From NCBI RefSeq assembly GCF_026571515.1, contig NW_026857783.1:50878-114877 (forward strand): a DNA stretch of 64,000 nucleotides, read 5' to 3'. Source of the stretch: Ruditapes philippinarum. Taxonomy: Eukaryota. The notes below the pieces were generated by a model that saw nothing but the letters and a program-made list of their open reading frames with translations, was not told the origin of the DNA and did no database searches. The position numbers and the translations under genes are program-made. Each line of letters opens with the position of its first letter. Positions within the stretch are counted from its first letter, which is position 1. Shown in pieces: positions 7,996 to 61,082 of this stretch.

Positions 7996-8042
<47 letters not shown>
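7189..8042. repeat. Tandem array (~340-bp unit with ~170-bp sub-repeat, 2.3 copies, 7218-7984) bracketed by (GACA)n microsatellites (7189-7217 and 7985-8042)
   Basis: Units start 'gcacaactag(g)acttggtactgatcattcctgtaaagtttgg' at 7218, 7549 and 7893. There are (gaca)7 on the left and (gaca/gacg)14 on the right. ORF 7982-8338 starts inside the microsatellite (DRQTDRQTD...). ORFs 7040-7366 and 7571-7768 are spurious. Confidence 0.85.
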
Positions 8043-8044
<2 letters not shown>

Positions 8045-8092
8045 GAAGTGATCCCTATATGTCGCCACTACTCCGTAGAGGCGACACAAAAA
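8043..8092 (+). mobile_element. Hairpin-bearing tail following the microsatellite (pearl/HINE/Helentron-type 3' region)
   Basis: 'gtgatccctatatGTCGCCactactccgtagaGGCGACacaaaaag' contains a 6-bp stem hairpin. The same architecture (tandem core, then tetranucleotide microsatellite, then hairpin tail) recurs at 25651-26138, 54151-55389 and as a solo tail at 48600-48700. Confidence 0.5.
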
Positions 8093-8094
8093 GA

Positions 8095-9420
8095 ATTTAA
8101 TAAAAAGTTTAAGAGTTTCAATGACAATGTCATAAAAAAACTGAGAGGATTAAAGCATAGTGATCCTAAATCTTATTGGAGTTTATTAAATACATATTCT
8201 TCTGATAAAAAAGTGATAATAAATAAAATAACTAATGAGGTTTTCCATGAGCATTTCAGTAATTTGAATGCAGATATTTTAAGAAATGAAAATGACGTAG
8301 ATAATTTAACAACTTACCAATGTTTAATGAGGCACTGAATTCGCAATTTACTGAGCAAGAAATAGATAAGGCTATAAAGGCGCTTAAGAATAATAAAAGT
8401 CCATCTATATTTGATAATATTCATTAATGAGTATCTCAAAAAAACTCCTGATAATCTGCTGGCTGTACTTACGCTATTTTTTTTAACATTATATAGACTC
8501 GGGTATCTTTCCGGATGTGTGGAGCAAGGGAGTTATCTTACCATTGTATAAAAATAAGGGGATATTAATGATCTGGATAATTACAGGGGCATAACAATAC
8601 TCAGTTGCTTTGGAAAACTTTTCACTTCGGTACTTAATAACAGATTAAATGACTTCTTGAAATCAAACAACATTCTATGTGAAGACCAAAGCAGGTTTTC
8701 AGGAAAGCATTATAGTACTGTTGATCACTCATATTTTCATTTAAAACTTTCTAGTGGACGTTAATCTAGCACATGGAAAAAAGTTGTATTGTACATTTTG
8801 TAGATTTATCGCAAGGCCTTTGATTCTGTTAATCGCACTGGCCATGTGGCATAAATTATTAAGTTACAAAATTGATCGGGAAAGCTTTTAAAATAATACT
8901 CAATATGTATGACAAAGCAAGTCATGTGTTAGTTCGAATAATTTACAATTTCAGATTTTTCACTAGTCATACTGGGAGTAAGACAAGGTGAAAACTTATC
9001 TCCAATATTGTTTTCTCTTTTCTTGAATGATCTAACTAATTTTTATAGTTTGATAAATATGAAGGTTTGCAGTTTCTAAAAGAACATATAAATGATAATG
9101 TTAAGTAATGATGAAATGGAAGTTTTATCTTAAACTGTATTTACTATTGTATGCGGATGACACTGTAATATTGTCAGAGAGCTCTCAGCAGCTTCAGTTA
9201 GCATTAAACGCTATGTTCTGACTACTGCAAGCTTTCGAATCTTGAAGTAAATTCAAATAAAACCAAAGTTATTTTATTTTGGAAAAACCAAGAGAGGTTT
9301 GCGTAATATGCCTAACTTTCACTATGAGGGGACTGTCCTTGAAATTGTTGAGCATTTCTCATTTTTAGGGTTCAAATTTTCATTTAATTAGTAAACTTCA
9401 GCAGAACTAAAACATTCCTT
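8095..9420 (+). pseudogene. Decayed non-LTR retrotransposon (LINE) ORF2 / reverse-transcriptase fragment
   Basis: Three-frame translation gives RT motifs broken by stops and frameshifts: 'FTEQEIDKAIKALKNNKSPS', 'YRGITILSCLGKLFTSVLNNRLNDFLKSNNILCEDQSRF', 'FVDLSQGL...', 'NLSPILFSLFLNDL', 'LYADDTVILSESSQQLQLALNAMF', 'FLGFKF'. Confidence 0.75.
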
Positions 9421-10606
9421 ATTGGATCAAGCCCGTTAAAGCAATGTTTTTCTGTAATTAGGAAATCTTAGGATACTTTTTTTTTACCAATAGATATGCA
9501 ATTACACTTTGTTTGATACAATGATAGCACCCATTTTTTTTATGGGTTGTGAAGTTTCGGGGGTGTTGAAGATGTGAGTGTTGTGGATGAATTTCAAATT
9601 TAAAATACCTAAAGGATAATTCATATGTACAGGTTAAACTTTTTCATCGATTGTTGGTGGCTTGGCTTTGTTTTCTTTTTGTCTCCAATGCTATGATTTA
9701 TGGGAGTTGGGTATTACCCCATTTCAACAACAAATTAAAAGTAGAGTTCTCAATTACTGGGGTAAATAGTTAATTCTAAACATGATAAGATAGTCAGCAT
9801 TCTATATAGAACAACTTCATAATTTATATACTCTGAAATAATATTAATCAGATTGGGGTCTGTTTTGTTCGAAATAATTTAAATAATCTTTTTTTGGATT
9901 GTCGCATTTTTGGATAAATTATCAAAATGTGGATCTCCTGCTTCATTCAAGAAATACTGTCAACTTAAGATTGCGTGATCATTTTATGCAAAATTGGAGA
10001 GTACAATTAATAATTCCTCTCAGTAAAATGTTAAATTACAGGATTTATAAAACAGGATTTTTGTTTTGAACCATACCTCAGCAAGTTAACCTATGAATTT
10101 AGCTTTAATTCTCTTTAAATTTAGAAGTCATGAATCACAAACTTCCATTGAAAAGGGAAAGGTTTATGATATTCCAAGAGAACTTAGAACTTGTAAAACA
10201 CTATGCTACCAGGTAACTCTTTTTAGGCGACCGAAATTCCATTATTCTTTTTGAATGTTCACATTTAGTCAATACAAGAAAGCTGTATCTTGAAAAAAAT
10301 GATTAACTATGAACGTCCAAGTACTTTTAAAAATTTGAAAAATTAATGAACCATAGTAATAAAGATATCCTTTTAGGAAAACTGCCATCATTTTGCAAAA
10401 TTATTAAGTTATTATTTAAATAAAGTTAGCTTTTTAGAATTATGTATTTTTTTTCTCTTTGTTTTTTTTCTCGCAATGATTTTTGATTTTTCTCTCTCAG
10501 TCCTCCATTATCAGTGGCAATTATTACAGTAATTTTATTACATCATGGAGTTGTATGACCATTTATAATTTGCCATTTTGTAGTATTTTGTTTTTACATA
10601 TTATTT

Positions 10607-13158
10607 CACGCCCGTTTAACTCACAACGAGTGAAAAATGTCCATCGGTTAAAATGTTGTGAGCAACTGCCGTTCCTCGTTGTGAGCACCCATCTTTGACG
10701 TGTGACACGATAAACAAGGTGAGTTTTTCATATTTTTTTAAGATTACAGACATTTATATAAAATATCGGAATGCAGTTAGCTAGCGATGTGTTTTTCGAG
10801 TATGCACATGTAAAGATATTGCCTGTTGGTCGACAATTTGATGGAAATATCGTGCGACTCAGTCACTCGGGGTAGCTGGAAAACTGGAGATATCTTCTCT
10901 CCGGACCAAATTTAACATCGAAAAACGTCGATTCTGGTGACGTTTTGTGCATTCTAACCTTAAACAGATGCCCACAAGTCTTCAGCGTAAATTATAATCT
11001 GAAAGTCTTCATAGAAACGAAGATATACCCCTTTTTGCTTTAATCCTCGTTGTAGCACCATAACCTCGTTGTGAGCAAGACAAGCGCAGTGCGTGTATGG
11101 TTTCAATATGTATTTCAGATGGTGAAAAATATAATTTTCAATCTACCAAAGCAATTTAAACGTTTTTGCACAGCAGCATTTCCTTGCAAAGACGTTGTGC
11201 ATACCCCAAAGGGAGTATTTATATTAGTTTTGAACTGTCCGTCTGTCAGTCCGTCAATCTGTCCGAAAACTAAACATTGGCCATAACTTCCTTATTAGTA
11301 AACGGATTTGATTCATATTTGAACACAACATTCCTTAGCACAAGACCTTCCTTTACGACCTGTATTTTTTACCTTGGCCCCTGAATGGCCTTACTTGAAG
11401 GTCAAATTGTCCCAAAACTTAAAAATTTGGTCATAACTTCCTTATTAGCATACGGATTCTACTCATATTTTGAAACAACACCCCTTTAGGCAAGACCTTC
11501 AAACTGATCTGTTTTTTTACCTTGTACCCTGAATGACCTTCTAGAACATCCAAAAACTTTAACATTGGTCATAACTTCTTAATAAGTAAGTGGAATTAGT
11601 TCATATTTGGACACAATGCCCCTTTGGACAAGACCTTGTTGAATTCGTGAAGTTGAAATTGTGAATTCATGAAGTTGAAATCGTGAATTCATGAAGTTGA
11701 AATCGTGAATTCATGAAGTTGGAATCGTGAATTCGTGAAGTTGAAGTCGTGAATTCATGAAGCTGAATCATGAATTCGTGAATTCCGTATTTTGAAAACG
11801 GTAATGCACGAAGTTTAAATTGTGAATTCATGAAGATGAAATAGGAAATTCATGAACTTGAAATGTCCCCACCGGTCTTTCGTAATACACACACATGTGT
11901 TTATCCTGAGCTGAAGACTGACCAAGTTATGTAAAACAAGAACTATCACGGTAAGTTGACAATGCCCCTGAAGTGCTGCTTTGTCCTTTGATTTATGGAC
12001 CAGATAGATTATTTGTTTTTGGACAATTAGATCTTCAATGTGAAGGTCATTCAAGGTCAAGGTGAAATAAATATAGGTCAGTTGGAAGGTCTTGTCCAAA
12101 GGGGCATTGTGTCCAAATATGAACTAATTCCACTTACTTATAAAGAAGTTATGACCAATGTGAATTAATTCCACTTACTTATAAAGAAGTTATGACCAAT
12201 GTTAAAGTTTTTGGATGTTCTAGAAGGTCATTCAGGGTACAAGGTAAAAAAAACCAGATCAGTTTGAAGGTCTTGCCTAAAGGGGTGTTGTTTCAAAATA
12301 TGAGTAGAATCCGTATGCTAATAAGGAAGTTATGACCAATTTTTAAGTTTTGGGACAATTTGACCTTCAAGGTAAAGGCCATTCAGGGGCCAAGGTAAAA
12401 AAATACAGGTCCGTAGGAAGGTCTTGTGCTAAGGGATGTTGTGTTCAAATATGAATCAAATCCGTTTACTAATAAGGAAGTTATGGCCAATGTTTAGTTT
12501 TTCGGACAGATTGACGGACTTACAGACGGACAGTTCAAAACTAATATGCCTCCCTTTGGGGTATGCACAACGTCTTGCAAGAAAACGCTGCTGTGCAAAA
12601 ACGTTTAAATTGCTTTGGTAGATTGAAAATTATATTTTCACCATCTGAATTACATATTGAAACCATACACGCACTGCGCTTGTCTTGCTCACAACGAGGT
12701 TATGGTGCTCACAACGAGGATTAAAGCAAAAAGGGGTATATCTTCGTTTCTATGAAGACTTTCAGATTATAAGTTACGCTGAAGACTTGTGGGCATCTGT
12801 TTTAGGTTAGAATGCACAAAACGTCACCAGAATCGACGTTTTCAATGTTAAATTAGGTCCAAAGAGAAGTTGTCTCCAGTTTTCCAGCTACCTCGAGTGA
12901 CTGCGTCGCACGGTATTTCCATCAAATTGTCCACCAACAGGCAATATCTTTACATGTGCATACTCGGAAAACACATCGCTAGCTAACTGCATTCCGATAT
13001 TTTTATATAAATGTCTGTAATCTTAAAAAATTATAAAAAAACTCACGTTGTTTATCGTGTCACACGTCAAAGATGGGTGCTCACAACGAGGAACGGAAGT
13101 TGCTCACAACATTTTAACCGATGGACATTTTTCACTCGTTGTGAGTAAAACGGGCGTG
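10607..13158. mobile_element. Large foldback (FB-like) element: ~1.03/1.07-kb inverted arms (10607-11637; 12088-13158) around a 450-bp spacer holding a 22-bp minisatellite
   Basis: The arms are near-identical reverse complements from 'cacgcccgtttaactcacaacgagtgaaaaatgtccatcgg' to its rc 'ccgatggacatttttcactcgttgtgagtaaaacgggcgtg'. Each arm has 3 copies of a ~150-bp subrepeat ('ggccataacttccttattag..'), a (gaca)-like tract and many 'ctcacaacgag' mini-palindromes. The spacer 11641-11866 is (gtgaattcatgaagttgaaatc)n with EcoRI sites. ORFs 10483-10698, 11071-11286, 11815-12099 and 12436-12621 are spurious. Confidence 0.9.
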
Positions 13159-15059
13159 TTATTTGCCATTTTGTATTATTTTGTATGTATGTACTGTTTT
13201 ATGTTGTCACATGCCCATATGGGCCCTGACGTATTCAAATAAACCTTTAAACCTTGAATTGAAGAGTTGTCTCTCTTTACTTTTAAGTGCTCATAATTCC
13301 GACCGAGATAAAACGCGGCTTAAGTGTTCGGTAATAGGTGCACCCGCTCTAACATCTTATAGTAAACTTAAAAATTTAAGCACATTTCTTCTTTTTCTTT
13401 CGAAGGCGTCCTACAATTTTCAACCACTGGAATTTCGCAAAAATGTAAACGCTTTTAGCTGAGTTAGATGATTATATGACTATTAGCATAGTTGCTACTT
13501 TCATATATTAATTATTCAAGTTTTAATGCATATATTCATATAATGAATAGTTATTTTACTGAAAGCAACGCTATACTATCGTTAAAAGGCGTGTCTAAGA
13601 AGAAGCAAGCCATGGCGTTAACCTATCTTCAATAATAAATCAATTAGTTGAATATGTTTTATAATGTTACATTTTAAAAACAAATTTCCGGCTCCGTTGA
13701 AAACAACTTTAACACTTTAAAATCTTGCAAAAAAATTCAAAGCGATTAAAGCATTAAGCATCGTGCACTATCAACAGAAAATGCTGTTTTATCTTATTTT
13801 TTTTAATTGAAAATCCGTCGTGCGTTTTTGTACCTGATCTCATTAACATCAATTACTCTACTTAAAAACAAAAGCACATTAAATCAATCAGTAAAAGTGT
13901 AAGGGAAGTTAAAGTAAAAATAAACAAGAATTTATAGGAAACAAATTCACTGCAAAAACATTACATCTTTACGTAAATTAAAGAAGCATGTGCTTTGTAG
14001 TTTTGTCATTTTCGTCTGTACTTTCATTTGTTTCAAACTCATTTCAAAAACATTTACCATTAACTGTTAACTGCAATTATATGAAAAATAAATAATTTGT
14101 CTAAAATATACACATTGTATTCATTTTATGATAGCGAAAAAATAATATTGAAAAATAATGGATATTGAATTTTCAATCAATGATTGATATTCTTTAAACA
14201 GGTAGTGTAAATTATCACCATTTTTCTGGGTTTTTTTTACGTTGTCAACCTATTGCCTTTTGTTTTGTTTACAAGGCTTGCCTCGCTGCGATATAGGTGT
14301 AGGTGTGAGTTGTAATGTAATATATTTGAGGGAAATGCTTTACTTAACGATTCTATCGTTTGCTGCTAGTAATCTTTACGTTTTGATATAATTACCCTTA
14401 AATTTATTTTGGTAAGCCACCATCAAACTAATTCGAAATTATTTGTGCTCTAGAATTATTACAATAGATGAAGTGCGTCGTGGTAAACTGAATAATTAGT
14501 TAATTAGTATGCTATCGTATTCTAATTAATTTATCTCTATACCCAATCACGTAAAATATCACACTTATCAATTAGATTGATAGATCAATTTAGCTTCAAC
14601 ATAAACATGTACAGTTACATGGTAGATAACATTTTAATGCATCAACAAAACATTGGACTATAAAAAGCTCATGTCAATCAAAGTTATATGTTTTCAACAA
14701 AAACACACAAAAAGAGTTAGGAAAACGTATTTTCCCAACGTGGTTTTTGTTTGATATAGGAAGATAGGCAATAAAGAATGATATCATCGCCCAAGAAATG
14801 ATAATGTTAAGCAGTGATACGTCTGTTATTTCTAAAGTTGCACATTCGGTTTATACATAACAGATTATGTAGAGTTCAGCACTCCTCTTCCCATCGGCTC
14901 AATTAGAGTAAAATGTAAGGTAATTGAAGAAAACAAACAACTGCTTAAACAACTTGTTTGTAATGTAATTTAATAATTACAAAGAGTATTTGTTCTAACA
15001 TATGTTTTTTTGTTTTATCTATGTAAGAACTTTGTTCTTAATTATCTAGAAATGAACGC

Positions 15060-15780
15060 TTGTGACGAATCACCACGAACGTCATGACAATATGAGCCGC
15101 GTCATGACAAAACCAACATAATGGGTTTGCGACCAGCATAGATCCAGACCATCCTAAAACAATTATTTCGTAAATTTGGTAATTGTTTAAAGGAACATTA
15201 TGCCTCAGAAATGATTTTATTTCTATTTCTCTAATCCTTTATTTTTGGTGTTCTGTTTAGTGTTTCTTCAAATGTACTCGTAGGCATATTACTGGACTGT
15301 CTTTTACTACTGCTGCTTTTTGGCAATTACTATTATTTTAATTTTAGTGACTTAGTATTTGGTATGGAAGTCAAAATACTACTTTGTTATCATTTTGCTA
15401 CTTTTATGACAAATAATTTCACTTTCATTGTACTTCTACAGTGAAATGCATCTATATGCTTTTAAACCGTTACTAGTATTTAATCCTTACAAAACTAGTG
15501 TTTACCCTTTCTAAAGAATGGAAAGTATATTCCTTTCTAAGGCAAAATGTGTCTTTAATAAAACAGAAATAAACGACACGATATACACTTTAATCTTTAG
15601 TAAACTCTCCAAAATAGATATAATTAAGCAGATGATTTTTAAATAACAGATGCTGTAAGATGCAATAAATCTTCGTTTGATTTCTAAACGAACGCGTGGT
15701 ATAGTAATTATACTGTCTGACAACAAATCAAAGGGCTGCAAGTACTATTCTCTTCTACTAAAATTACAAATATTTTCGGG
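15060..15780. repeat. Paralogous block A: the uninterrupted copy of the sequence at 27040-27235 + 29010-29420
   Basis: Long near-identical stretches, e.g. 'ggtatggaagtcaa[a/c]atacta', 'gaaatgcatctatatgcttttaaaccgttactagtatttaa', 'aaacgaacgcgtggt[a/g]tagtaattatactgtctgac'. Copy B is split by ~1.77 kb of LINE sequence. Confidence 0.85.
15093..15150. mobile_element. Hairpin-MITE family, truncated copy (left arm only)
   Basis: 'gagccgcgtcatgacaaaaccaacataatgggtttgcgaccagcatagatccagacc' matches the left arm of the full copies at 29715-29931 and 61083-61289. Confidence 0.7.
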
Positions 15781-16139
15781 GTAAGAGTTTAAAGCAGCAT
15801 ACTTCTAGATTCCTGCTAATTCATGCGTTAGTCAATAGTCATACTATAGAAATATGTTGATGAATTCTGCAAGATCAGTTTTTATCGCAGATAACTTGTA
15901 AAATCATAATTTGAATGTTTTAATCCTTTTATCTTTTTTTTTAATTCTTAGTACATTTTCCTCATGCTTGATTTTCTTGAAATATTTTTCGCTCATATGG
16001 AGGCATGCAGCTTTAAACCAAGGCCCGGTATATGCCATGTTGTACACTTCAATAAAACTTGCATATTTATGGATGTATCTTGGACTTTTTTCCGATGAAA
16101 ATGATACTTATATCGGTCAAACGAATTAGATTGATCCCA

Positions 16140-16640
16140 TGTATTTTCTAACTTTAATTTCGTAGGATCATCTACGAGCAAACATAAGAATGTCACTGAG
16201 CCATCGTATTTTCAGCACCTACTGTACAATCGACCATCCAACACACAAAGGGTTCTCTCGATTTTAAATAATGTATTGAAGAGTGTTGAAAATATTTAGA
16301 GGATATTTATGGTGGCTGATTTGTGCCATTCGTTTTTCGCCTGTGTCTCCGCTAAGCGAAAGTTAAAATTGCGGGGGAGCGGAGCGAAAACATGCTAATA
16401 AGCGGGCGCGGGGGAGATAAAAACATTACCGAGCATAAAGCAACTAATGTGATGTAGATATTCAAAAAGCTATATCAATAAATAAATACCATTGAAATCA
16501 ACCAAAAGGTACTACTTGCAAATATTATTCATAATAAAACTTCTAAGTATTTTGGATAATTGAACTTTGGAAGCATCAGTGTCAACAATATCATCTAAAA
16601 TAATACTATACATGTATATATATAATTTATGGTCAAGAAC
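16140..16640. repeat. Paralogous block A': copy of 30890-31740
   Basis: 'gtcactgagccat(t)cgtattt', 'ggatatttatggtggctgatttgtgccattcgttttt(t)cgcctg', 'aaagcaactaatgtgatgtagatattcaaaaagctatatcaataaataaatacc' are shared. Copy B carries an extra ~295 bp at 31200-31495 flanked by a duplicated 'aat[ac]aa[gt]cg' motif. Confidence 0.8.
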
Positions 16641-17663
16641 AGTGTTTAAAAAGACATCATAAGTAGCGGTAAACAAAATGATTCGATGATATTAACGACA
16701 AAAAAAAGGTATCAAATACCAGTAAGGTTAACTGGCGGTTAATTAATTTATTAAACAGCAGTTTCAAATCAGAGATGAGGTGGAAAGGTTGTTACAGAAA
16801 AAAGAATAGTAATTTTATCCCCTGTTAAGAAATCTGTTCACGATTTTGAACTTGCTAACTTGATGCAATATGAACACACAAAAATTGCTGTGACTCTATA
16901 TTCAGAGAAAATCATTTTTTTTCAGTGCCTGGTGTTTATCTTTTCATTTTCTCTTTCAAGAGTAGCTTTCTACTCTACTTTTTTAGGTTAAAATAATTTT
17001 ATACAGTGGCAAATATGTATCACACAAATCTAATAACAACCATTTTTTGAATTTGCAATGACATCTAAATTGGAAAGGTGAACACAATATAATATACCTA
17101 CATTTTAAATATTTTTAAAAGATACCATTTACAATATTCTACGTAATTGCGGTTTATTTTAGTATAATCCATACTGAAATGCTTTCATGGTCATTAAAAA
17201 TGTTTTTTTTTAAAACAATTTCTACTGATATGTAGATGCTCAGTTAGCTTAATTAAACAAACACGCCTAAAATCAACGAAAAGGTATTACTTACAGATAG
17301 TAGTCATAGTAACTTCTTAGCCTTTGGAGGCATCAGTGTCAATAATCTTTTACTGAAATGATACTTTATGGCATTTAGAAATATTTTAGGATAACTATTA
17401 CATTTTTTTACGATCAAGCACAACATATAAATGTCATCATTAGGTGACTGTAACAGTAAACAAAATATACGGTGATAATCAACAAAGAAATATGGTATCA
17501 AATTCCAAAAGAAAGTTCAGGACAAGGTTGACTACCGGTTAATTAGATATATAGATAAATTAAAAATGCGATATCAAATCGAAGATGAGGTGGTTTGTTT
17601 TAGACTGTATAAATATGAAATCTCACATACTTATATTTTACTTAAAACTTTGCGTTTAACAAA

Positions 17664-19058
17664 ATGGAAGTTTTACAGCTATTCTTTTATTTTAGGTGTG
17701 TTCTCATAGTGAAAGGACTTAACAACATGCTTACTAATGAATCGTTATCAAATTACAACAATTCAGATCTAGTGTCTACTTTGATAGCAGAACAAAGTCG
17801 AATCTGCCCTTATATTGCTTTGTGTCATGCATCAAACAGCTCTTCTTTTCAATTTGATAGATCTATGAGCAAATTACCGTGCTGCAAGGCATGTTCGTGT
17901 CAGGACACTTGTGTTCAAGAAGGTTCTTGTTGCCCGGATTATTTCAATGCAGAAGGTATAGATTTTAAGGAAAACCAGACATCACATGATAATAATAAAA
18001 AACCTGTTAGTGCCAGTGCTAACACGACGTTAACACATACACAAGAATGTGTTAAAGTACAACATGGTCGAATACAAAATCAAGACGGTTACATGATGGT
18101 AGCATCATGTCCACCCAACTTTGACGACATTGAAGTAAAAAGGAAGTGTGAAATGAAGATACATCATAGCAACCCCTTCGACATAATTGACAACGTCCCA
18201 GTAACATACGAAGATCAAAGACAAACATATAAAAATCAATACTGCGGACAATGTAACTTGCAAGAAGATGTATTTCCTACATTTTGGCATGTAACGCTCG
18301 TGTGTGATATACATTACTTTTCTTTCAAGTCCATTTCCGCGGTTAATCAATTTGAATTCATAGAGGCCGTTCTATTTACAATGCCTGGGAAGTGTAACGT
18401 AGTCTTTGAGTATGAAACTACAAATATCAGCTTAAATGCAGAACTTCGACAGTGTACATACGACACAATGATCGATAACTGCATCAAAGAACATTCGAAC
18501 ACCTTTCTTCAAACAATGTGCAAGAACTATTTCTGGACTATTACGGTGCAAGTCATTTCTGAAAGAAAAATATACAAAAACTATGCATGCCTGCTCTGTA
18601 ATGAAATAAGCTTCAGGGATAGATGTACAGTAAACCAAGAACTCAAACCAGTTGTTATTCAATTTACATCTATTTTGAACATCACTCGGAAACCATCAAC
18701 TTTCGTCGATACTTCGAAAGATGAACAACATATTATCAATCGTTATTTTCCAAACACAGACGGGGAAATTCGCTGCAAAAAAGGATTCGCACATGATATT
18801 AGAAAGGTATTGAAAATAAAAAAAGTTGTATCGAGTATGTCTTTGTACCCATTGCTTTATTCAACAAACACTTTTGTTATGATTATGAAAATACCCGGAA
18901 CTCCATTAAAGTATGCTATTTTACGTGGCGTCCTGAGTCAGGCTTATTGTTTTTCTCGTTTAGGGCACACGCTTTTTATTACTTGGGGACCTTACGCCGC
19001 TTTTCATGGAATGGCACGGAAGTGTCACATTGAAGGTTCCATGATAACCACCGTATGA
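17664..19058 (+). CDS. Uninterrupted 464-codon ORF for a cysteine-rich (27 Cys) protein with N-terminal hydrophobic leader and a somatomedin-B-like motif (CCKACSCQDTCVQEGSCCPDYF). Probably a large exon or single-exon gene for a secreted/extracellular domain
   Basis: It is the longest ORF in the window, and 1.4 kb without a stop is very unlikely by chance at ~66% AT. The C-x-C-x3-C-x5-CC-x-D-Y spacing matches the SMB domain pattern, with N-glycosylation sequons and a hydrophobic C-terminal stretch. Antisense ORFs 18105-18350 and 18432-18662 are spurious. True start and possible splice exits (e.g. AAAG|GTATTG near 18806) are unresolved. Confidence 0.5.
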   Translation: MEVLQLFFYFRCVLIVKGLNNMLTNESLSNYNNSDLVSTLIAEQSRICPYIALCHASNSSSFQFDRSMSKLPCCKACSCQDTCVQEGSCCPDYFNAEGIDFKENQTSHDNNKKPVSASANTTLTHTQECVKVQHGRIQNQDGYMMVASCPPNFDDIEVKRKCEMKIHHSNPFDIIDNVPVTYEDQRQTYKNQYCGQCNLQEDVFPTFWHVTLVCDIHYFSFKSISAVNQFEFIEAVLFTMPGKCNVVFEYETTNISLNAELRQCTYDTMIDNCIKEHSNTFLQTMCKNYFWTITVQVISERKIYKNYACLLCNEISFRDRCTVNQELKPVVIQFTSILNITRKPSTFVDTSKDEQHIINRYFPNTDGEIRCKKGFAHDIRKVLKIKKVVSSMSLYPLLYSTNTFVMIMKIPGTPLKYAILRGVLSQAYCFSRLGHTLFITWGPYAAFHGMARKCHIEGSMITTV

Positions 19059-19122
19059 ACACATCTGCGGATGTTTCTAAATTTAAAATTTTACTATTTC
19101 ATGTTTAAATGTTGAATTCTGC

Positions 19123-19262
19123 TTAAGCCGCTGCTAGGGGGCGTGGACGGTAACTTGCACTTTCCAGTACCGTCCATGAACAGGCTCAATCAAACCGAGC
19201 CTGCAACATTTTCAATTTTGCCGTGTTGGGCTTTCTTTAGGGATTCTGTATTTATCTATTTT
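19123..19262 (-). mobile_element. Second full copy of the hairpin + CTAG interspersed repeat
   Basis: About 95% identical to 4309-4437, with a few extra 5' bases ('gcttaagccgctg') shared with the rc copy at 46700-46712. Confidence 0.6.
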
Positions 19263-22083
19263 ATTAAAGAAAGTGCAACGACTGCGTGTGCACACGTGAT
19301 ACTCTACGTAAATGCATGATTTTGTCTCTGCTAATGTATACGTGCGTGCGTACTACTTTTTATGCATGCAAGAATATAGTTCATTTCATGACTTAGAAAA
19401 ATCATATATAGAAAATTATTCTTTTAATGTAATAATGCAATATTTTTTATCATTTTTCTTGTCTCATATACAACATTTTACAATAATTCTAATGGTATAC
19501 CAAAACAGTATACACTGTTGGGCTTTTCAAATTACTGATTATCCCATTAAACTATTATGATTACTGGTATATACCTTAGATGCATTGTTTTTAATGTAAC
19601 AAAATGCTAATAGGCCTGTTTTCCGACTTTCCAAACGCGATTCAAAACAATAAACGGACATTTACTTCAACATTTTACCCGTTCCTGTTAAATAAAGAGG
19701 TCATGATACACATTTGTCTTTTCAATACTAAGTTTATTTGACGGCACCTCGGCCATTATAAGTGATAAAGTTGTTTGTCTACTACTCCATTTCTATTCAG
19801 TATAGTACTCAACAATATATAATAACAGCAGTAAGCAGTCAATGGTATATTAGGTATTATGCATTTTTTAAAACTTATTCCAATTAGTTTGGGAACTTTG
19901 AACCTCTACGTAAACAAATCTTGTTAAAACACCGACACAGCAAATAACAACAAAAAAAACAAACATTGTATCATAGATGAAACTGATCAACGTTTACGGT
20001 AAACACGTAACCTATTGATCATGCATAAAATGCAAGTCTTATTCTTATAGATTAAGCGTCATTGAAATTGATAAAATGTAATATTAAGCTAGCATTAGTG
20101 TAATGGTTGGGTTATATATTTATCCACAACTGACTTTTTAATTGTAGGATGTATGCCGACAACTTTTCATAATTTTTCTTCTTTTCAAGATAGTATATGA
20201 CACTTTTTTTCAAGTATTGGGAAATTTCACCATCCAATTTAAATTGTTAATTTTCAGTGCCACTACCCCTTTTGCACATTTGTAAGGAATTATTTTTGGA
20301 TATGAAATAATTTTGTTTCTGGTAGAAATTACCTATGTTTTTGCTTTTATTTGGGGCCGATACTATTTTAAAAAAGTGATTTTAAGTAACAAGTGACCAT
20401 TTTTCTTTACATCTTTTGTCATCTTGAAAAACAAATCCATGCGCATAAAAGAGGCCCCCTTTTCACAGGCTCAAAAATGGCACATCTTTTCTAACAACTA
20501 AAACAATTTTTTAAATGTAGGTAATCTAATAAGACTTAAATCAAAAGCATCTTCAGATATATTGCAAATAGTCTTGTAAAGTGTCAAAAATAGAAACCAA
20601 GAAGAACTTTCTCCATTAGTAAAAGGTCAGAAATTATGTCATAAATTGCATAAAACGTTAATCTATAGTATATAATAATAATATGCATGAGATTTTATAA
20701 ATATTTTTGTGTGAAACGCACTGTATTTGAAGACAATTTAATGAAAGTGTATAAAACTATATATTCTGGTGCCAGTTGTGAAAAAACTTTTGAGTTTTGA
20801 AAAAGGATACAAATATGAAAGAAATTAGTCAATATATTTTGGATGGTAAAAAATCTTCCATAAATAGCAAAATAATACTTTATTATGGAATATTTTAATA
20901 TGTTTGTATACAATAAACTATATGTGTTTTATGACACAGACATTTTTTCTAAGAACTCGTTTTAGAAACTACTGCAAGATTATTGAAACATCATAATTTG
21001 AATGTAAAAATATTTCATTAGGTAAAGCTTATTTATTGTACCAATTAAATAAAATAAAAATAATAAACCTCTCAATTATTTGATTCAATATTGATATCAA
21101 AGTTTAACCCGTCAAATATATGTAAAAAGCTGAATATCAATGAAAGCAAAGTTATTTACTAGATTCTGTCAAATATGATACTAATGTCGTTGAAAAAAGT
21201 ACTCACTGTGGCATATAATGGAAAAAAGACGTTTAAAAATGTCTAGCTTGTCATCAAATTAAAAGAAAGAAAGGCAGTGTTTAACATTGTCCTAAATTTA
21301 TTTATCGGTTGTTTTTATATATTTTTTTCTTTTCTTATCTTGAATTCTGAAATACTATACCCATAAGATATGTAAAATTATATTTTACTTCAAGGCAATA
21401 AGGTATGCTATAAAAGACATTTCATACCACATTAGAAATTTCTTCCTTACCTAGATACACAATCCAAATCAATAAAAACATTGTGCGTCCTACTGCAATA
21501 ACATTGCCATCATATGTGTAATAATGTGTTCCGATTATACACGATTTCTCTTTGTTCCTATTACAGATTGTAAAAGTAAATAAAATTATTCAAAATATCT
21601 TAAACATTTAAGTTAATAACGTATAAAGTTAATCAGGAAGAGATATGCAAGGTTGGCGTAAATGATATCTGTAAAATCATAAATACTAGTAAAATGTGTG
21701 CGTTATTCAAAACGTGATATAAATTTTGATTAAGATTGTAAATTCAATTCTTATTTAGCTTTTTGAAGAGATCTTGAATACTCGTTTATCATTGACATAA
21801 CTGATAAGGGCGATAAATCATGCATCGGAAGAGCATTTCAAAAAAGATCAAGTTGGACTGTGGGAGAGATTCAGAATAAATATAATTCAGAAACTAATTA
21901 AGCAGTGTTATCACCAATGTGGTTTATAAAACACATTAAATTTTAATATGTTTTTTCTTGTTTTTTCCTTTTTTGTCATTTTTTCAGTTTTGTTTACAAA
22001 AATAGTTAATTACAACTTTTTACTTACTCCTTTCTACGAAAGCCTAATAATATCAAATAAAACAAAAAATAAAAATGCAAAGG

Positions 22084-23668
22084 AGTTATAACGCGTCTAA
22101 AGGCGTTATTATGCGAATCAAAAGGCAAAATTACGCGAAACAAAAGGTGTGATAACGCGAAAAAAAGCGTAACAACGGGAATAAAGGCGAAGTAACACGA
22201 ATATAGGCGTTATAACGCGAATCAAAAGGCATGCTTACGCGAATCAATGCGTAATAACGCGAATAATTGCATAGTAACAAATAAAGGCGTTATAACGCAA
22301 ATCAAAATGTGTATTAATGCGAATAAAAGCGTTATATCGCGACTCAAAAGGCGTAATAACGCGAATGAAAAGGCAAAGTAACGCGAATAAAAGCGTAATT
22401 ACGCAAATAAAGGTGTAAGTATGCGAAAAAGGACGGAGTTACGCGAATAAATGAGTAGTATCGCGAATAAGGGAGTTGTAAGGCGAACCAAAAGACGCAA
22501 TAACGCAAATTAAAACGCATTATAACGCCAATTTAATACCGTATTTATACTAATCAAATGGTCCAATAACGTGAGAAAGGAAGAACAATATTGATCTGAT
22601 TTTTTTGCTCAAGATATAAACTACTGTATAATAACATAATATACATTAATAATAAATATTATTCTATTTGCACAGTAATAATGTAAACTATTTGTCATAC
22701 ACTAATGAAGACTATGTGAGATTTGTCAATATAATGTGACATGGTGACTCATGGGTCCATTAGGCTCGAAATAAATACAGTTACTCTAAATTCACATGTA
22801 TCACATCATTGATTTTACACATGTCACTATTTTATATGTGGGTCATAATTATGTTATTATCTACGGATATGTCCTGTATAATAACCTAATAACCTGTAGT
22901 ATCTTCTCATTATGTGGTTGTCGCTCCTAATACAGTTAAAGGTAATAGGCTATAGGTAAGGAATTGGAAGAAACGTTAGGTATAAGTAAGTCACATAAGG
23001 AATGAAATTGTATCTTAATTATTGAAATGGTGATAATGTTTCGGTTAATTCAGTTAAAATCATAAGTCATAGGGGCCATTGTTTTCTTTGTCTTTGTAGA
23101 AAAGTATCGACTAGTTGGCTTTGAAGAAATGTATCTAATAGTTGGGTGATAGTTAATCACTTATTTGGTAAAAGTCTTTCCTAATAAGAGATTAATAATC
23201 AGACTGTGGTATTAGGACGTATCCGTGAAGAATTGAAAATAAAACGCAAATCTTGATCAATTCACTTAGATCAGCATTGTTCTTTCTTTTTTACATTACC
23301 AGGCAACTTATAATAATTTATATGGTATTGAATAAGTGTTATAACGCCTTTCGTTTTGCGTTATTTCGCATTATTTCGGTTCGCGTTATAACGATTTTAT
23401 GTTCGCGTTATAACGGCTTTGGTTTCGTGTTATAACGCCTTTTAATTCGCGTTATAGCGTCTTTTTTTTTTGCGTTATTTAGCCTTTTGATTCGCGTAAG
23501 TACGCCTTTCGATCAACGTTATAACGCTTTTGTATGCGTTATAACGCGTTAATACACCTTTTGATGCACGTTATTACGCTTTTTTGGTTCTCGTTAATAC
23601 ACCTTTTTTGCGTAACTACACCTTACGCCCTTATTTCGCGTTATTACTCCTATTTGCGTTATAACGTC
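22084..23668. repeat. Foldback-like structure: two inverted arrays of a ~15-bp minisatellite (22084-22540 forward; 23337-23668 reverse) around an ~800-bp spacer
   Basis: The forward arm is (aaaggcgttataacgcgaatc)n-like. The reverse arm is 'gcgttataacgcctttcgttttgcgttatttcgc...'. ORFs 23253-23435 and 23534-23941 are translations of the repeat. Confidence 0.85.
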
Positions 23669-25650: not shown

Positions 25651-26060
25651 GTTTCAAAGCAATATCTCAAAGGGTTAAGGCAATAAGTGGATTTTACCCA
25701 TATTCAATGTATTTTCTAAGTCAAAAAGGGGCATAATTCTGTCAAAAACCTTGACAGAGTTATGTCCTCTTGTCTGTTGATGAAGGTCGTGATGGTAAAC
25801 AAGTATGGTCAGTTTCAAAGCAATACCTCCAATGGTTTTGAAATAAAGTGAGGTGGTACAAAAAACTTAACCAAGCTCAATACACTTTCTAAGTCAAAAA
25901 AGGGCCATAATTCTGTCAAAAACCTTGACAGAGTTATGTACTCTTGTCTGTAGATGGAGGTTATGATGGTGAACAAGTATGGTAAGTTTCAAAGCCATAC
26001 TTGTAATACTTCTGAAATAAAGTGGGGTGGTACGAAAAACTTAACCAAGGTGTGACGCCA

Positions 26061-26091
<31 letters not shown>

Positions 26092-32160: not shown

Positions 32161-33394
32161 GACGCTATTATAGCATAAAATTTTCAAACAGATTCGTGAT
32201 GTATAGTTTATACAAAACACAATTGCATTAAATTCTTGTGCTTGGACGGTATTTATCCAATTCTATGTTTTACGTATGCGTTTCATTTTTCCGGGGCCAA
32301 CAACTTGGAAAATTCTCGGAACCGAACGAAATTTTGAATTTTAATTTATTTAACAAAGCTTGGCCTTTGGAGATTTATTATCTCAAGAAAAAAACGTTAC
32401 ATTACTCTACCCTCTACCCAAGACAAAACATGACCCTCAGAAATTCTTAGAGTGATTTCAGATTGACGGTAGAAAAAAGATCAGTGACATCAGAATCGGT
32501 TATTTTTTTCAAGCAAACCAGTTTATAACAAAATCAGGCACTAAGCATTATTCTCTCAAAGAAATATAATGAGCATTTATCAACATTAACATAAATAAAA
32601 AACATATTCTCATATCAATTTTGTGTTATCTAGTTTTGTAAGTTAATCGGAGTGTTAAACTGAATGACAGGTAGATTCTTCTGTATTTGTTTACATTGAC
32701 AACTGTCCGTTTCTTAGAAAGGGCGACAACCAAGATTTAGCACCGATGTCTATACGCCGTTTTTCCGGCATAGTTACTGGAATATGCAACTGAGGCCCTC
32801 GAATCAATAAATTTCAATTTAACAAGAGCGCATGGCTCTTCGGCAAACAGGCCAAATCGTCATTTTTTGTTTGTTTGTTTACTGGGCCCTGTATGTATTG
32901 CGCATAGGTGAAACCGGGCTATATAACAAGAGCGCGTGACTATGTTAACACATGGTTTTGGTCCCGTTATAACATGGGCAAAAGAGGGAAAAATAGCCGA
33001 TTTTATGCTATAATGTGAAATAAATGCTGCTGAAGAAGGCCGCAAGGCCGAAAGCTACGGCAATTTTAAATTAGCGTTTTTGCTTATATACGGCAAGTTA
33101 GAGATTTTACTTGTTTCTGAAAGTACTATTTCTCAAGGATGAACATAGTATAGTTTATATTATAGTCTATATAAGTATGAATTCCTTTTTTACAATTGTG
33201 TATTTTTATTTTGAATAACCAACCATATCTATTATCATCTTTCAATGCAACAAAATAAAAAATGTATATTACAGAACTTTAATTGCTTATTTACAACAGA
33301 AAAAACATACATAAATACAAATAATCAATCCTGATATGGCTATTAAAAATGGAAATAAATTTGTTAACTTTCCTAAAAAATATCTAAAAAATGG

Positions 33395-33520
33395 GAGTGA
33401 AACATCCATATATTTGACAAATTAGGGGTGAAACGTCTAGGTGCGAACCGTCTTGGGAGTGAAACGTCTCAATAGTGAAATGTCTTGGGAGTGAAACGTC
33501 TCACATTCCTTATTCACGCA
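33395..33520. repeat. Minisatellite (gggagtgaaacgtct-like, ~20-25-bp period, ~5 copies)
   Basis: ggagtgaaacatcc, gggtgaaacgtcta, gggagtgaaacgtctc, agtgaaatgtct, gggagtgaaacgtctc. Confidence 0.7.
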
Positions 33521-33521
33521 C

Positions 33522-34055
33522 ATTCTAAGGCAAACTCCTCACAGCGGTTACGTCACGCTTTGCTACTTTAACCACTGCCACGACTGAAATCACGTGATGA
33601 TAGTTGTATCATGTGACAAAAACATGGCGGCCAGTTTCAGAACGCCAGGGATCCCATATCAAACTGGCAGATTTATAATTACATCCTTTCCAGACAAAAT
33701 AAGTTCAAGACACACAATTTGTTATCACTTTAAAACAAGTGCCGGATCAAATCTTTTTGTGCAATCGTTCAATAACTGTTTATATTCTGCCATTGTTTAC
33801 TATGCATACGGTGTCACAGTGAAAATATCTTTCGTTATGTTTACAAAATAATTTTTATACGTATATTTTTTTACTTTCTTGTACATTAAGCATAACTATT
33901 TAACGAAAGAAAACTAAAATGTTATAAAGTATTCTATTTTAAAATTAAAAGTGAAAAAAATATATCCGGCTATATTCGACCGAATTTACTTGTGGTGACA
34001 GTGGTTACTGTACAGATCAGGGGAAGTAACCGCTGCGAGGAGTTTGATTCTAAGG
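33522..34055. mobile_element. 516-bp non-autonomous DNA transposon (MITE), 33531-34046, with 21-bp TIRs and a perfect 9-bp target-site duplication 'attctaagg'
   Basis: Left TIR 33531-33551 'caaactcctcacagcggttac'. Right TIR 34026-34046 'gtaaccgctgcgaggagtttg' (1 mismatch). Direct repeats 'attctaagg' at 33522-33530 and 34047-34055. Internal ORF 33594-33851 has no recognisable domain. Confidence 0.85.
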
Positions 34056-34367
34056 CTCTTGTCTGATACGCATCGGGAACCAGTCGGTTGAAAACAAATT
34101 GGTTCTCTTTTAAAAATTTATCGACTGCTGGCGTAGTAACATTAAAAATGTGTTTAGCAAGAATATATGTAATTTTGTAAAAGAAGGATTGAAATTCTAG
34201 TAGTTAATTGGTCAGTAAGTTTTAAAGTAGAAAGGGTAATTGTGTTTCCCTGAATATCATGACAAAGTATTGGACCTATTTTGCCTAATGTAGTCGAGAT
34301 GTGTTAAAACCAAATCATAATTCCATTGGGTCACTCGCTTGCGCTAGACGCCCCAAAACGGATAACA

Positions 34368-34698
34368 ATGCAAAAATCGAGTGTCTATGTTGCATTGCTC
34401 AGTGTTTCTATTTTGCTTATTGGAAGCGGAATTTTAGTGTATCTACTGTCAAATAAGAATAACACATGCCAATGTAATATTCCAGACAGGTGTTTTATTA
34501 ATGCGACGACAAATTCCCTTGAGCAGACGACAAATTCTCGTGATCAGACAACAAATTCTCAGAATCTCACGTTACCTACTTTCACGACGAATTTTCAAAA
34601 AATCACTTCTGCTGTAACTACGCCGAAGGAATCAGTGCATGTTGGAACAAGTTTGGCGACAACTTCGTCTCCACTTAACACAACAACAGAAATACCAG
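34368..34698 (+). CDS. C-type lectin gene, exon 1: short cytoplasmic N-terminus, signal-anchor TM (VYVALLSVSILLIGSGILVYLL) and a Thr/Ser/Asn-rich stalk
   Basis: ATG at 34368 inside ORF 34326-34739. Weak donor CCAG|GTTTGA gives phase 1, which joins exactly to exon 2. The stalk has three (Q)TTNS(R/Q) repeats. Confidence 0.6.
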
Positions 34699-35190
34699 GT
34701 TTGAAGTTTAGCATTTTATTATTCCATAGATTAATTTAAAAAGTCAGCACGGCTATAGATCTGTTGCATAAAGTATTATAATTCCTCGCATCCCAACTCC
34801 AAACAGTGGTTTTATTTAGCGATAAAATCACTGTTTTGGATGTATAATTTCTTTAACACTAGAACGGTACATATATAGTTAAATATAATCGTAAATCTTG
34901 CACTGGTAATGTTAAACCTAGTCGGATTTTTCTATTTCATGTCTACATTATTTTAATTCAACCAGATGTTTTTGGTTATTTTGAGTCTATTAATATGGCT
35001 CAGTAACTAACAATAATAATCTAATTTGTAATAGGGGCCTTTCTTAATAAATATAGTAAATATTTATAAGTACGTATTTTACAAGCTGAAACATGACGTA
35101 AGTTTAATGTTAAACGTCATTTTTATGCAAATAAAGGGTCTTATACTTAAAAAGAAAGTGTCGTCTGCATACATTATATTCTCATTATAG

Positions 35191-54150: not shown

Positions 54151-55389
54151 CAAGGGGGCCATGATGGCCCTAGATCACTCACCTGACCCATTGAACTCGT
54201 CCAAACAATTACCTAGACAAGCATTCTGACCAAGTTTCATAACAGTTGAGTCAAAAATGTGACCACTAGAGTGTTAACTAGGATTATCCATATCTGTGTT
54301 GCCTAGTTTTTTACCCAGGTGACCTATATTCGAACTTGACCTAGAAATCATCAAAACAAACTTTCAGACCAATTTACAGGATATTGGGATCAAAACAGTA
54401 GCCACTTGAGTGTTAACAAGATTTTTCTATTTTTAGCTCCAGAGCCCTAGTTTTTCATCCGAGATGACCAATGTTCGAACTCTTCCTTGCAATTACCTAG
54501 ACAAGCAACCTGACCAAGTTTAATGACACTCGAGTCAAAAATCTGACCGCTAGAGTGTTTACAAGGTTTGTCTATTTTTAGCCCTGGTGACCTAGTTTTT
54601 CATCCGAGATGACCAATGTTCGAAATCATCCGTACTATCACTTAGACAAGCATCCTGGCCAAGTTTGATGTTGATTGAGGCACAAATGTGACCGCTAAAG
54701 TGTTAACAATGTTTTTTTTTCTATTTTTAGCTCTGGTGACCTAGCTTTTCATCCTAGATGATCCATGTTGAAATCATTTGAGCTATCAACAAGATAAGCA
54801 TCCTGAGTAAGTTTGATGATGACTGAGGCAAAAATGTGACCGCTAGATTGTTAACAAGGTTTTTAGTCTTTTAGCTCCGGTGACCTAGTTTTTCTAGACA
54901 GCAAGCTGACAAAGTTTGATGATGATTGATGCAAAAATGTGACCGCTTGAGTGTTAACAAAGTTTTTCTATTTTTAGCTCCTGTGGTCTAGTTTTTCATC
55001 CGAGATGACCCTCGTTCTTGCTCATTCAAGCTATCACCTAGACGCACTCCTGTGACCTAGTTTTTCATCCGAGATAACCCATGTTCGAACTCATTCGAGC
55101 TGTCAACTAGATAAGCATCTTGAGCAAGTTTGATGATTATTGACGCAAAAATGACCGCCCGGGTTTTAGCAAGGTTTTTCTAGTTTTAGCTCCGGTGACC
55201 TTGTTTTTCATCCGAGATGACCCTCGTTCGTACTCATTCGAGCTATCAACTAAATAAGCATCCTGAGTAAGTTTTATGATGATTGAGACAAAAATGTGAC
55301 CGCTAGAGTGTTAACAAACAAGTGTGGACGGACGACGGACAGACGACCCTAAAAGCTCACCCTGAGCAAGCTCAGGTGAGCTTAAAAAC
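54151..55389 (+). mobile_element. 1.2-kb tandem-repeat element (pearl/HINE/Helentron-associated type): 5' palindromic head, ~8 units of ~135-150 bp, (GGAC)n-like tract, hairpin tail '..agctcaccctgagcaagctcaggtgagcttaaaaac'. The insertion is proven by an empty paralogous site
   Basis: The flanks 53330-54150 and 55390-55700 are collinear with 63040-64000, where 'acatataaa|gaaaac|tatttaacc' (63763-63786) is uninterrupted. Here it reads 'acatataaa[CAAGGGGGCCATGATGGCCC....CAGGTGAGCTT]aaaaactatttaacc'. The repeated core motif is 'ctagtttttcatccgagatgacc'. Confidence 0.85.
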
Positions 55390-58198: not shown

Positions 58199-61082
58199 GA
58201 TCTTACTTTTTGCAAAAAATAGTATCGTTGTTGTGGAGATGATTTTAATCAGAATGAAATGAAAATGTACTGACAAGAGGGATAAAAAGATATAAGATAG
58301 CAAAAAAAAATCAAATTATGAACTTGAACTTTTTTTAAGACATTTATAATATTTTTCTGAGAAATAGTGGTTGAAATAGTGTTAAAGATTTTTCTACTCA
58401 GCAGGCTCATTACATTATATCATCAGTTCCCGAATTTTGCAATATTTACCCCCCTTGCACAAGCGACAGCCATTTTGGGGTCAATATTTGATTAAATATT
58501 ATTGACAAAATATGAAGAAAAATAACCAAACACACAACTGATTTAGGTGAACTGTGAAATTCTTTTATATGAAGGCAAATATTATTATACTAGCACCTAT
58601 ATATAAAATATTTTTATCAATTTGCATGAGGATAATAAAATTATGAGATTTTAATTTTTTTTAGGCATAAATATATCATGAATGACCTTCAAAATGGCGG
58701 TCAGTGGAGGTAATAATTACTATGTGAAAAGCATCTATAATTAATAAGTAGTTATTCTGGATGTATACGTCATGTATATAAATGTGTTTAAAATGATAAT
58801 TCACCAATGTAGCATAACTGTTAATCTAAAATAAAAGATAAAATTATTGTCCGTTTTGATTCTTTTTAGTTGACATTTTGGATTCGTTCGATTCATTATG
58901 ACAAATTAAGACGAAAATAATTCAAACATTTGAAAACATTTGTTTTACTTTGTAAGCACATGCATACCGTTAAACCTAATGCATTTGTATTAAGCTTTTT
59001 TTATTAAATGAATCTTCGGATTTATTTGGAAAGTATGGAATCAATATAAATGTCCGTCCAGGTTGAAAATAAAGACATACTTATTATCATTTTATTGACA
59101 AGTTATGTTTATATTGTTCCGGTTTCAAAAATCTGGAGAAAAACATATTTCATCACAAAACACCTGAAACTTTTGTAAAAGATATTGTTTCCTCATGTTC
59201 AACTAAATTTACCCCGCTCCACCCTACCTTCATGTGCGGTGTCCAAGTGGGTGTATGTTGTCCCGTTTTAGTCAATTATCGCTGAGAGGCGGTTGTGCTC
59301 CATGAACATGTTTTTCCTTTGTTGACCTCCGCTCTTATGTTTTAACAATCTCTTTTTCAGTCAGACAGTTTATCTCAACATGAAAATTGTCTTTCTTTAA
59401 TTCTAAAGCAGAACAGCAGTTTCACTTCATAGATATCATTTTAAATTTGACATAAACCTTACGACAAATCAAGCACACAGATAAATCCTCATCAATCATT
59501 TCAACGCGGAGATTTCTGTATGGTCTTAATCTTTTCATTTTGAATTATGGGTGAATAAGTATATTACAATTAGAATGTCTCCATAAAATATTTGTTAACA
59601 AAAGAACACATGTCAATGTTTGTGGTTAAATCTATTGTTATTCAAATAAAAGGGTCAGAGTAGGGATCTATCAATTAAATGGTCAGTTTTATTTTAGTTT
59701 CTTTTATTAAGAGATAAATAAACTGAAAGTACATATCTGAAGTTTTTAGTCAAGAACCTAAACCCGTGTTCATTAAAAAAATCTTGATCATATGATTTTA
59801 TTTTTATTGCCTTATTGAGATAAACGTGACCGTATTATGGAACATAAACAAAATGTAACAAAACAAAGCTGACTTGCAAAGAAACGACCTTTTTCTGGGT
59901 TAAAATTAAGGAAAAACAATACAAATACATCATTAGATAGATCAAAATAAGGATAAATGTCAGGATCAAGATCTATAATTGTATAAACTGTTAATGCGAC
60001 ATTAAGTCAATCTAAATAGCATCACTATAATGGCATTACTCAAATTTATGGGATTACTGCCATCTAAATGTAAATGGTAGGGGAATAACTGCCATCTAAG
60101 TGTACACGTCAAAGTAAAAATAACTTACGATTTTGCCATGCTTAAATCCTATAGTCTAGTTCAAATCGATAACCCACGTGATTTACAGATATTTCTATAA
60201 ATATCATTTGCAATGTATCGATAACGTTCAATTGATAAAAAGAGTAGGACAGTTTTTTTTTATATTTCTGACAATTGTTATATTTCATCCTAAACAATTG
60301 TTTCTCATTATTGGTCAATGGCCATTATAATAGTCAATATTTTTGAAATATACCTATTGACAATTTAGTTCAACTCGACAACGAAAAGTAAACATACTGT
60401 CACTTGAAATACCCATATTTTGTAAGGTAATAATTCTAATTTTATTCTAAAATTTCATAAACATATCATTTCAAGCCCACGATGGTATCTAGCTTATATT
60501 AAATACTTAATATAATGATGAGGATAAATAATAGAAAATATTTGAGTTTCTTTAAACTAATCCTTATCTTGATCAGGCCTTAACTCTTTGTGAGCACGAG
60601 GCCTGGTTAATCATGTGCAAACACAAACACAAATTAAATAAAATTAAAAAAAGAAAACTTTATACAAACAATCTATTTACAGACATAGTGTCGCTGTTTC
60701 TCGACTGACCTTCTGTTTGATTACAAAATACTGAACCCTTAAATGTGCATTGAAATAACTGACAAAAGAAAACACTTCCTGCCAAGACATTCGATAAAAA
60801 GTTGTAGTCCTAAAGCATTTCTTAATCAAGTAAACCTTACAAGAAATAAAAAATACCTGGCGACGGTGTACAGGTTTTATAGTGCTTTTTTTCTGTGAAT
60901 TTTGGTATTAAAAAGATTTTTAACGCCAGGTATATTCTGCTCAACAACTTTATTTCAAACCGCAACAAAATTGTTTCTTTGAGGGAAAAAAAGTAAAATA
61001 TTTAGTTCGAAGAAGATAATCATTCTAAATATACCAAATCATCAGAATAACGCCATTTGCTTGTTTCAACGAAAATAACATT

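Follow-up and report, generated by a model that had tools for sequence, protein, structure and literature searches.

A multi-copy MITE family with 9-bp target-site duplications and a candidate affiliation to AcademH

AcademH transposons of animals are flanked by target-site duplications (TSDs) of 9 or 10 bp (PMC7165386), and several families of oyster MITEs have been assigned to them. The oyster 'DNA9' MITEs were reclassified as AcademH-N (Kojima 2020, PMC7165386), DNA9-8_CGi (87 bp) becoming AcademH-N1_CGi and DNA9-2_CGi (578 bp) becoming AcademH-N2_CGi; AcademH-2N1_CVi, of 60-88 bp, and AcademH-7N1_CVi, of ~350 bp, belong to the same set (PMC7165386). Bivalves show a specific expansion of Academ, for which 100 families have been curated, compared with 39 for MULE (PMC10294476). 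The termini of most animal AcademH families are of the type 5'-CAATCT, and those of Crassostrea virginica (PMC7165386) and of Acropora open with CAATCT.

We retrieved two AcademH copies of Mya arenaria, on CP111015.1 (L130) and CP111012.1 (L131), via their DUF6589 transposases; both are apparently complete. These copies start with CAATCTGATTAAAATCA and CAATCTCATTAAAATCA, respectively, have CAATCT termini, and are bordered by 9-bp TSDs, GCCTGTAGA for the first and CAGTTAACC/CAGTTAAGC for the second. Between their termini, over 12.8-14.3 kb, they present a DUF6589 transposase and a DEAD/Helicase_C gene in opposite orientation.

The window, i.e. the whole 64-kb stretch of DNA that was analysed, has a GC content of 32% and many tandem arrays, with hardly any long ORF and without tRNAs, a composition that points to a eukaryotic genome. 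It contains a non-autonomous element of 516 bp with 35% GC, the features of which are given in Table 1 together with those of the related loci.

Table 1 Positions of the features of the window and of the related loci (L numbers denote loci outside the window).
Feature	Sequence	Positions	Strand	Remarks
Left TSD, ATTCTAAGG	window	33522-33530		9-mer found only twice in the window, both times flanking the element
Left TIR, 21-nt core CAAACTCCTCACAGCGGTTAC	window	33531-33554	+	core at 33531-33551, pairing extends to 24 nt
Whole element, 516 bp	window	33531-34046	+	without recognisable coding capacity
Subfamily-specific internal segment, 168 bp	window	33617-33784	+	common to copies L134 and L135
Right TIR, CAAACTCCTCGCAGCGGTTAC on the minus strand	window	34023-34046	-	21-nt core at 34026-34046
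Right TSD, ATTCTAAGG	window	34047-34055		abuts the right TIR
85-aa ORF inside the element	window	33594-33851
Galectin-like stretch, ORF residues 20-65	window	33651-33790
Minisatellite, 16-nt unit GTGAAACGTCTCAAGA	window	33428-33503		4.8 copies; degenerate units back to about 33392
Downstream ORF	window	34368-34700	+	begins some 320 bp past the right end of the MITE
21-nt tandem repeat	window	34505-34560		inside the downstream ORF
CAATCTGATTAAAATCAG-like string	window	58239-58256	-	2 mismatches
CAATCTGATTAAAATCAG-like string	window	9838-9855	-	3 mismatches
Tandem-repeat arrays, 145-174-nt	window	2016-2585, 7189-8039, 11253-12515, 25713-26090, 54206-55111
Insertion at GTGGTGGCA	L012	313-1653		1341-bp composite
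Insertion at GTGGTGGCA	L081	1625-1994		370-bp copy
Insertion at GTGGTGGCA	L134	710-799		90-bp mini
TIR-only minis	L053, L057, L071, L106, L110, L134	3695-3768, 193-268, 707-786, 4051-4128, 411-490, 710-799
Subfamily B	L029, L012	548-916, 488-853		also in L116, L070 and L037
Other repeat, about 350-390 bp	L079, L104, L012, L040	1142-1487, 1105-1494, 1667-2056, 1795-2177		ends CATTCTATACATAGATGGTGACGTCAC...; inserted into family copies or adjoining them
AcademH of Mya arenaria	L130 (CP111015.1)	5290-18051
AcademH of Mya arenaria	L131 (CP111012.1)	8518-22776
CACTA-type Transposase_21/DUF1258 ORF, 861 aa	L047	952-3534	-	unrelated to the MITE
Mariner-type DDE fragment	L044	984-1574	+	unrelated to the MITE

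The left and the right TIR differ at one of the 21 bases of the core. The pairing reaches 24 nt at 92% in a repeat search, and the outer ~55 nt of the element pair imperfectly at 79% in a self-BLAST, so that the imperfect TIRs extend over about 55-65 nt. When up to 3 mismatches were allowed, the TIR was found at two sites only in the 64 kb, shuffled sequences giving an expectation of 0 matches. Both occurrences of ATTCTAAGG touch a TIR, and a 9/9 match at these fixed positions has a chance of ~1e-5, as calculated from the base composition of the window. A direct-repeat search gives 10 nt, ATTCTAAGGC, the tenth base being the first base of the left TIR; since the flanks across the family set the boundary at CAAACT, the TSD of the window copy is 9 bp. 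The single-stranded fold of the element, with the termini paired, has a z value of -4.1. Self-BLAST revealed no further copy of the element within the 64-kb window, and an Rfam search of positions 32500-35000 matched nothing.

Other copies were found in metagenomes. A scan with the TIR core AACTCCTCRCAGCGGTTAC as query found it in JGI metagenomes, on at least 120 contigs, those among the matches listed being all from Ga0224511 and Ga0224510, two samples with abundant bivalve host DNA. Many of the matches sit at contig ends, as expected because repeats break assemblies. The same scan gave 0 matches in viral contigs, and the 5 matches in prokaryotic genomes, isolated and bacterial, were set aside as chance. 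A literature search for the TIR string returned unrelated primers only, and the supplements of the bivalve transposable element paper (PMC10294476) held no matching sequence.

In the family loci, fuzzy matching gave 175 TIR ends forming about 48 inward-facing pairs. The dominant size class, of ~357 bp, comprises 31 copies with 91-98% identity to their own consensus, and a few longer forms bring the range to 162-1341 bp. Minis of 74-90 bp, with little beyond two fused TIRs, are each bordered by their own perfect 9-bp TSD (Table 1). The 'elements' of 731-1341 bp were considered as autonomous copies and rejected, being family copies with nested unrelated repeats. Subfamily B, present in at least 25 loci of the family set, agrees with the family in the left TIR and over the first ~71 nt, while its interior is unrelated and contains two GGCCGAGTWGTTMCGATTG repeats, and its right end, CAATCTCCAACGCAGTGATC, is more diverged. 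In variant C (L076, L056, L027 and others), the first 119 nt are 100% identical to the family and then give way to unique sequence, at least 422 bp long, that always ends at the contig edge; this variant could be the edge of an autonomous element. Apart from the MITEs, the loci contain another repeat of about 350-390 bp (Table 1), and a further repeat of ~430 bp is nested in L022 and L012.

The TSDs were tabulated for the 46 TIR pairs with sufficient flank. Thirty-three present a perfect 9-bp TSD and four a 9-bp TSD with one mismatch; the TSD is 10 bp long in three pairs (two perfect, one with one mismatch) and 8 bp long in none (0/46). Six pairs have no TSD, at least four of them being mis-pairings within nested copies. 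The TSDs of the family show no strong sequence consensus. An earlier note, made from the window, had proposed a MITE with a true 9-bp TSD on account of the identical 9-mers that flank the TIRs, and had named missing TSDs or variable flanks in other copies as the sign of a coincidental match. The 9/9 match of the window copy, the 9-mer of which occurs nowhere else in the window, and the 37 of 46 copies with 9 bp (33 perfect) uphold the proposal and refute coincidence; the exclusion of hAT, which needs 8 bp, is likewise upheld.

Therefore, the window element is a genuine non-autonomous cut-and-paste-type DNA transposon, the integration of which duplicates 9 bp and rarely 10. It has all the features of a MITE, namely TIRs at both ends, a constant TSD length, a small size, multiple copies and the lack of a transposase.

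The window copy was compared with the 357-bp consensus of the metagenome family. Its positions 1-86 and 255-516 are 89.5% and 86% identical to this consensus, respectively, and its positions 87-254 (the subfamily-specific segment of Table 1) stand where the consensus has about 12 bp; this segment found no match in the 120 family loci examined. At the left end, 50 nt match the metagenome consensus at 100%, and three positions of the last ~70 nt deviate from it; the interior has ~86% identity. The ends are thus more conserved than the interior, which fits a constraint of recognition by the transposase. An exhaustive phmmer search with the 85-aa ORF of the element, which spans the subfamily-specific segment, led to a third JGI sample, Ga0499543, and to two members of the 516-bp subfamily in it. 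The first, L134, has 97.7% identity to the window copy and is split by a 90-bp mini element; the second, L135, of 510 bp, is 86% identical to the window copy over its full length and has a perfect 9-bp TSD, GATACATGT.

The sole large ORF of the window, of 464 aa, has its best match, at 88%, in the same sample Ga0499543, and no homologue of it was found at NCBI. Considering that this sample has both the 516-bp subfamily and the 88% homologue, its host is closely related to the source organism of the window. A DHRS1-like gene on the family-bearing contig L049 has 70% identity to Mya arenaria, 67% to Dreissena polymorpha and at most 57% to other named taxa, which indicates a bivalve as the metagenome host. 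Among annotated genomes, this host is nearest to Myida; that it is a shipworm or a pholad is only a guess.

Additionally, we found that copies of the family have inserted into other copies. Three independent nested insertions share an identical 9-bp target, GTGGTGGCA, which corresponds to positions 303-311 of the consensus in the family copies that they entered (Table 1), and they come from two different metagenome hosts. A fourth nested insertion, in L066, is into a TIR. In the window copy, the homologous site reads GTGGTGACA and is unoccupied. The three insertions suggest a self-directed insertion hotspot at GTGGTGGCA, in loci that were selected for containing TIRs and are hence subject to ascertainment bias.

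Concerning the transposase that mobilises the family, AcademH is the best-fitting superfamily, an assignment to which we give about an even chance. The family shares with the oyster AcademH non-autonomous families a bivalve host, a high copy number, TSDs of 9 bp and sometimes 10 bp, 5'-CA...TG-3' termini opening with CAAWCT, and lengths that fall into classes near 80, 350 and 550 bp, the TIR-only minis being the parallel of AcademH-2N1_CVi and AcademH-N1_CGi (60-88 bp). The 9- or 10-bp TSDs typical of AcademH are the lengths seen in the pairs that have a TSD. The termini of the MITE are of the CAAACT type, starting with CAAACTCC, and several copies as well as the right end of subfamily B start with CAATCTCC, i.e. 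with CAATCT. In the same way, the Mya AcademH copies have 9-bp TSDs and CAATCT-type ends, and among annotated relatives it is Mya that stands closest to the metagenome host.

In contrast to these likenesses, the MITE TIR CAAACTCCTCACAGCGGTTAC bears no relation, past the first ~6 nt, to CAATCTGATTAAAATCAG, the TIR conserved in oyster and Mya AcademH, and the likeness to the termini of C. virginica, Acropora and Mya ends after 6-8 nt. Unlike the MITE, the Mya elements encode a transposase and a helicase, and they have no subterminal sequence in common with it. No autonomous copy carrying the MITE TIRs was recovered in the family loci or in the window, so that membership of AcademH is inferred, and a tblastn of AcademH transposase domains against the 120 family loci and the window gave nothing. 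AcademH contigs of other JGI samples (P0066, P0095, P0093, P0080) and of Mya present no likeness to the MITE past the first 6-8 terminal bases; in the available loci (the 120 loci, the window, the other JGI samples and Mya), no termini common to the MITE and a DUF6589 plus SF2-helicase element were found.

In the favoured reading, a transposase supplied in trans would bind the conserved terminal ~50 bp at both ends and excise the element. For reinsertion, the target would be cut in a staggered manner with an offset of 9 bp (occasionally 10), and gap repair would yield the flanking ATTCTAAGG copies. The mobilising enzyme would be an AcademH transposase, a DDE protein with DUF6589/PF20231, encoded alongside a superfamily II helicase, and one AcademH-like parent would have given rise to both the 516-bp and the 357-bp form through different internal deletions.

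The main rival reading, unlikely but deserving consideration, takes the family for non-autonomous derivatives of Mutator-like elements (MULE or Rehavkus), moved by a MULE transposase. MULE TSDs measure 8-11 bp, a length of 9 bp being common to many groups of animals and protists, with TIRs down to 18-48 bp (PMC6446971), and MULEs occur in molluscs (PMC6446971; PMC10294476); the TSDs of the family, of 9 bp with a minor share of 10 bp, lie within this range. In common with Mutator-derived MITEs, the family is non-autonomous and multi-copy with a 9-bp TSD, but the TIRs of the former are typically long, often >100 bp, whereas those of the family start with CA and are short, 21-24 nt when perfect and about 55-65 nt when imperfect. 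Moreover, classical MULE termini begin with G, whereas those of the family read 5'-CA...TG-3'. No MULE transposase was noticed in the loci, as inspected without a MULE profile, and bivalves have fewer MULE than Academ families (PMC10294476).

It is more improbable that another superfamily or an undescribed lineage with 9-bp TSDs, the partner of which would be unrelated to the known Academ or MULE transposases, has mobilised the family. No partner was found, the TIR resembles AcademH over ~6 nt only, and L076, in which 119 bp at 100% adjoin 422 bp that are unique, could belong to the margin of an autonomous element of unknown kind. Against this, known superfamilies account for every observed feature, and the missing partner is explicable by the short metagenome contigs. 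A long shot is that the family is mobilised by a transposase lineage so far unconnected with 9-bp TSDs, either a new group or a divergent branch of Academ whose TIR is unrelated, and that this lineage strongly prefers GTGGTGGCA, a motif within the subterminal region of the element itself, which would lead to recurrent self-nesting.

The earlier note had pointed to Mutator-like elements or Merlin, and of the two only the Mutator-like reading stays in play. A Merlin- or hAT-derived MITE, with an 8-bp TSD extended by a chance base, is highly improbable if the sampled copies are representative: Merlin has been reported with 8-9-bp TSDs and short TIRs, but 8 bp was found in 0/46 pairs against 37/46 with 9 bp and 3/46 with 10 bp, the Merlin TSD is 8 bp as a rule (PMC10045372), and among molluscs Merlin is almost restricted to cephalopods (PMC10294476). 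That the TIRs and TSD arose by chance coincidence or as an assembly artefact, as the single copy in the 64-kb window might allow, has a negligible probability and was ruled out by more than 120 independent copies from three metagenomes, which agree in their ends and follow one TSD rule.

Returning to AcademH, the suggestion of the earlier note that the superfamily may be uncharacterised is not supported as worded, AcademH, absent from its list, being already home to the oyster 'DNA9' MITEs. The 516-bp MITE is an ordinary case: the family is new and not a new class, and MITEs with 9-bp TSDs from bivalves have already been tied to AcademH. It provides a well-documented MITE family for the annotation of bivalve genomes, probably of the Myida lineage, with a 357-bp consensus, a 516-bp subfamily, minis of 74-90 bp and a 9-bp TSD rule. 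If tied to AcademH, it would widen the known diversity of AcademH termini and strengthen the case for this superfamily, which has been little studied, as a driver of MITE expansion in bivalves; a TIR that differs from the conserved AcademH TIR is of modest specialist interest.

The 85-aa ORF of the element is not regarded as coding, considering that a Pfam search found no domain in it and that it is truncated in L135. The summed phmmer match of this ORF to the 12-domain galectin P0241 has E = 1.3e-12 over 10 repeats, and BLASTP with a single galectin domain gives 28% identity over 46 aa in the HFNPR region (pairwise E = 5e-5; Table 1), although Pfam detects no galectin domain in the ORF. The likeness may go back to the ancient capture of a gene fragment or be due to chance, and capture is treated as unproven. 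The start of the ORF (MAA..TPxxxY) was also compared with AcademH first exons, and the resemblance was not significant. Exact-protein look-ups of two window ORFs returned no record.

The contigs of the metagenome host also carry coding sequences of other transposons, namely a CACTA-type transposase on L047 and a mariner-type fragment on L044 (Table 1). The former, which is adjacent to a TIR, was considered as a partner of the MITE and rejected; it lies outside the MITE, which is truncated at 383 in this locus. In the window, two strings resemble the canonical AcademH terminus CAATCTGATTAAAATCAG; no inverted partner for either was found in the window, and they may be chance occurrences in AT-rich DNA or old solo ends.

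The minisatellite beside which the earlier note had placed the element is a real array, located 18 bp upstream of the left TSD and hence outside the element. No sequence like it was found in the 120 family loci or in the flanks of other copies. On the other side, the downstream ORF encodes an N-terminus that is hydrophobic and resembles a signal anchor. A stretch rich in Thr, Ser and Asn, MQKSSVYVALLSVSILLIGSGILVYLL..., comes next, and the ORF ends at a GT that follows ...EIPG. This ORF is possibly a first exon, in which case the MITE would be in the 5' flank of the gene. A position upstream of such a putative first exon is the usual one from which MITEs can influence regulation; in other respects, the insertion is ordinary.

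Finally, the window presents five arrays of 145-174-nt tandem repeats (Table 1), two of which, at 7189-8039 and 25713-26090, adjoin GACA or GACGCC microsatellites. We take these arrays to resemble the tandem-repeat-containing Helitron-like non-autonomous elements that are common in bivalves.
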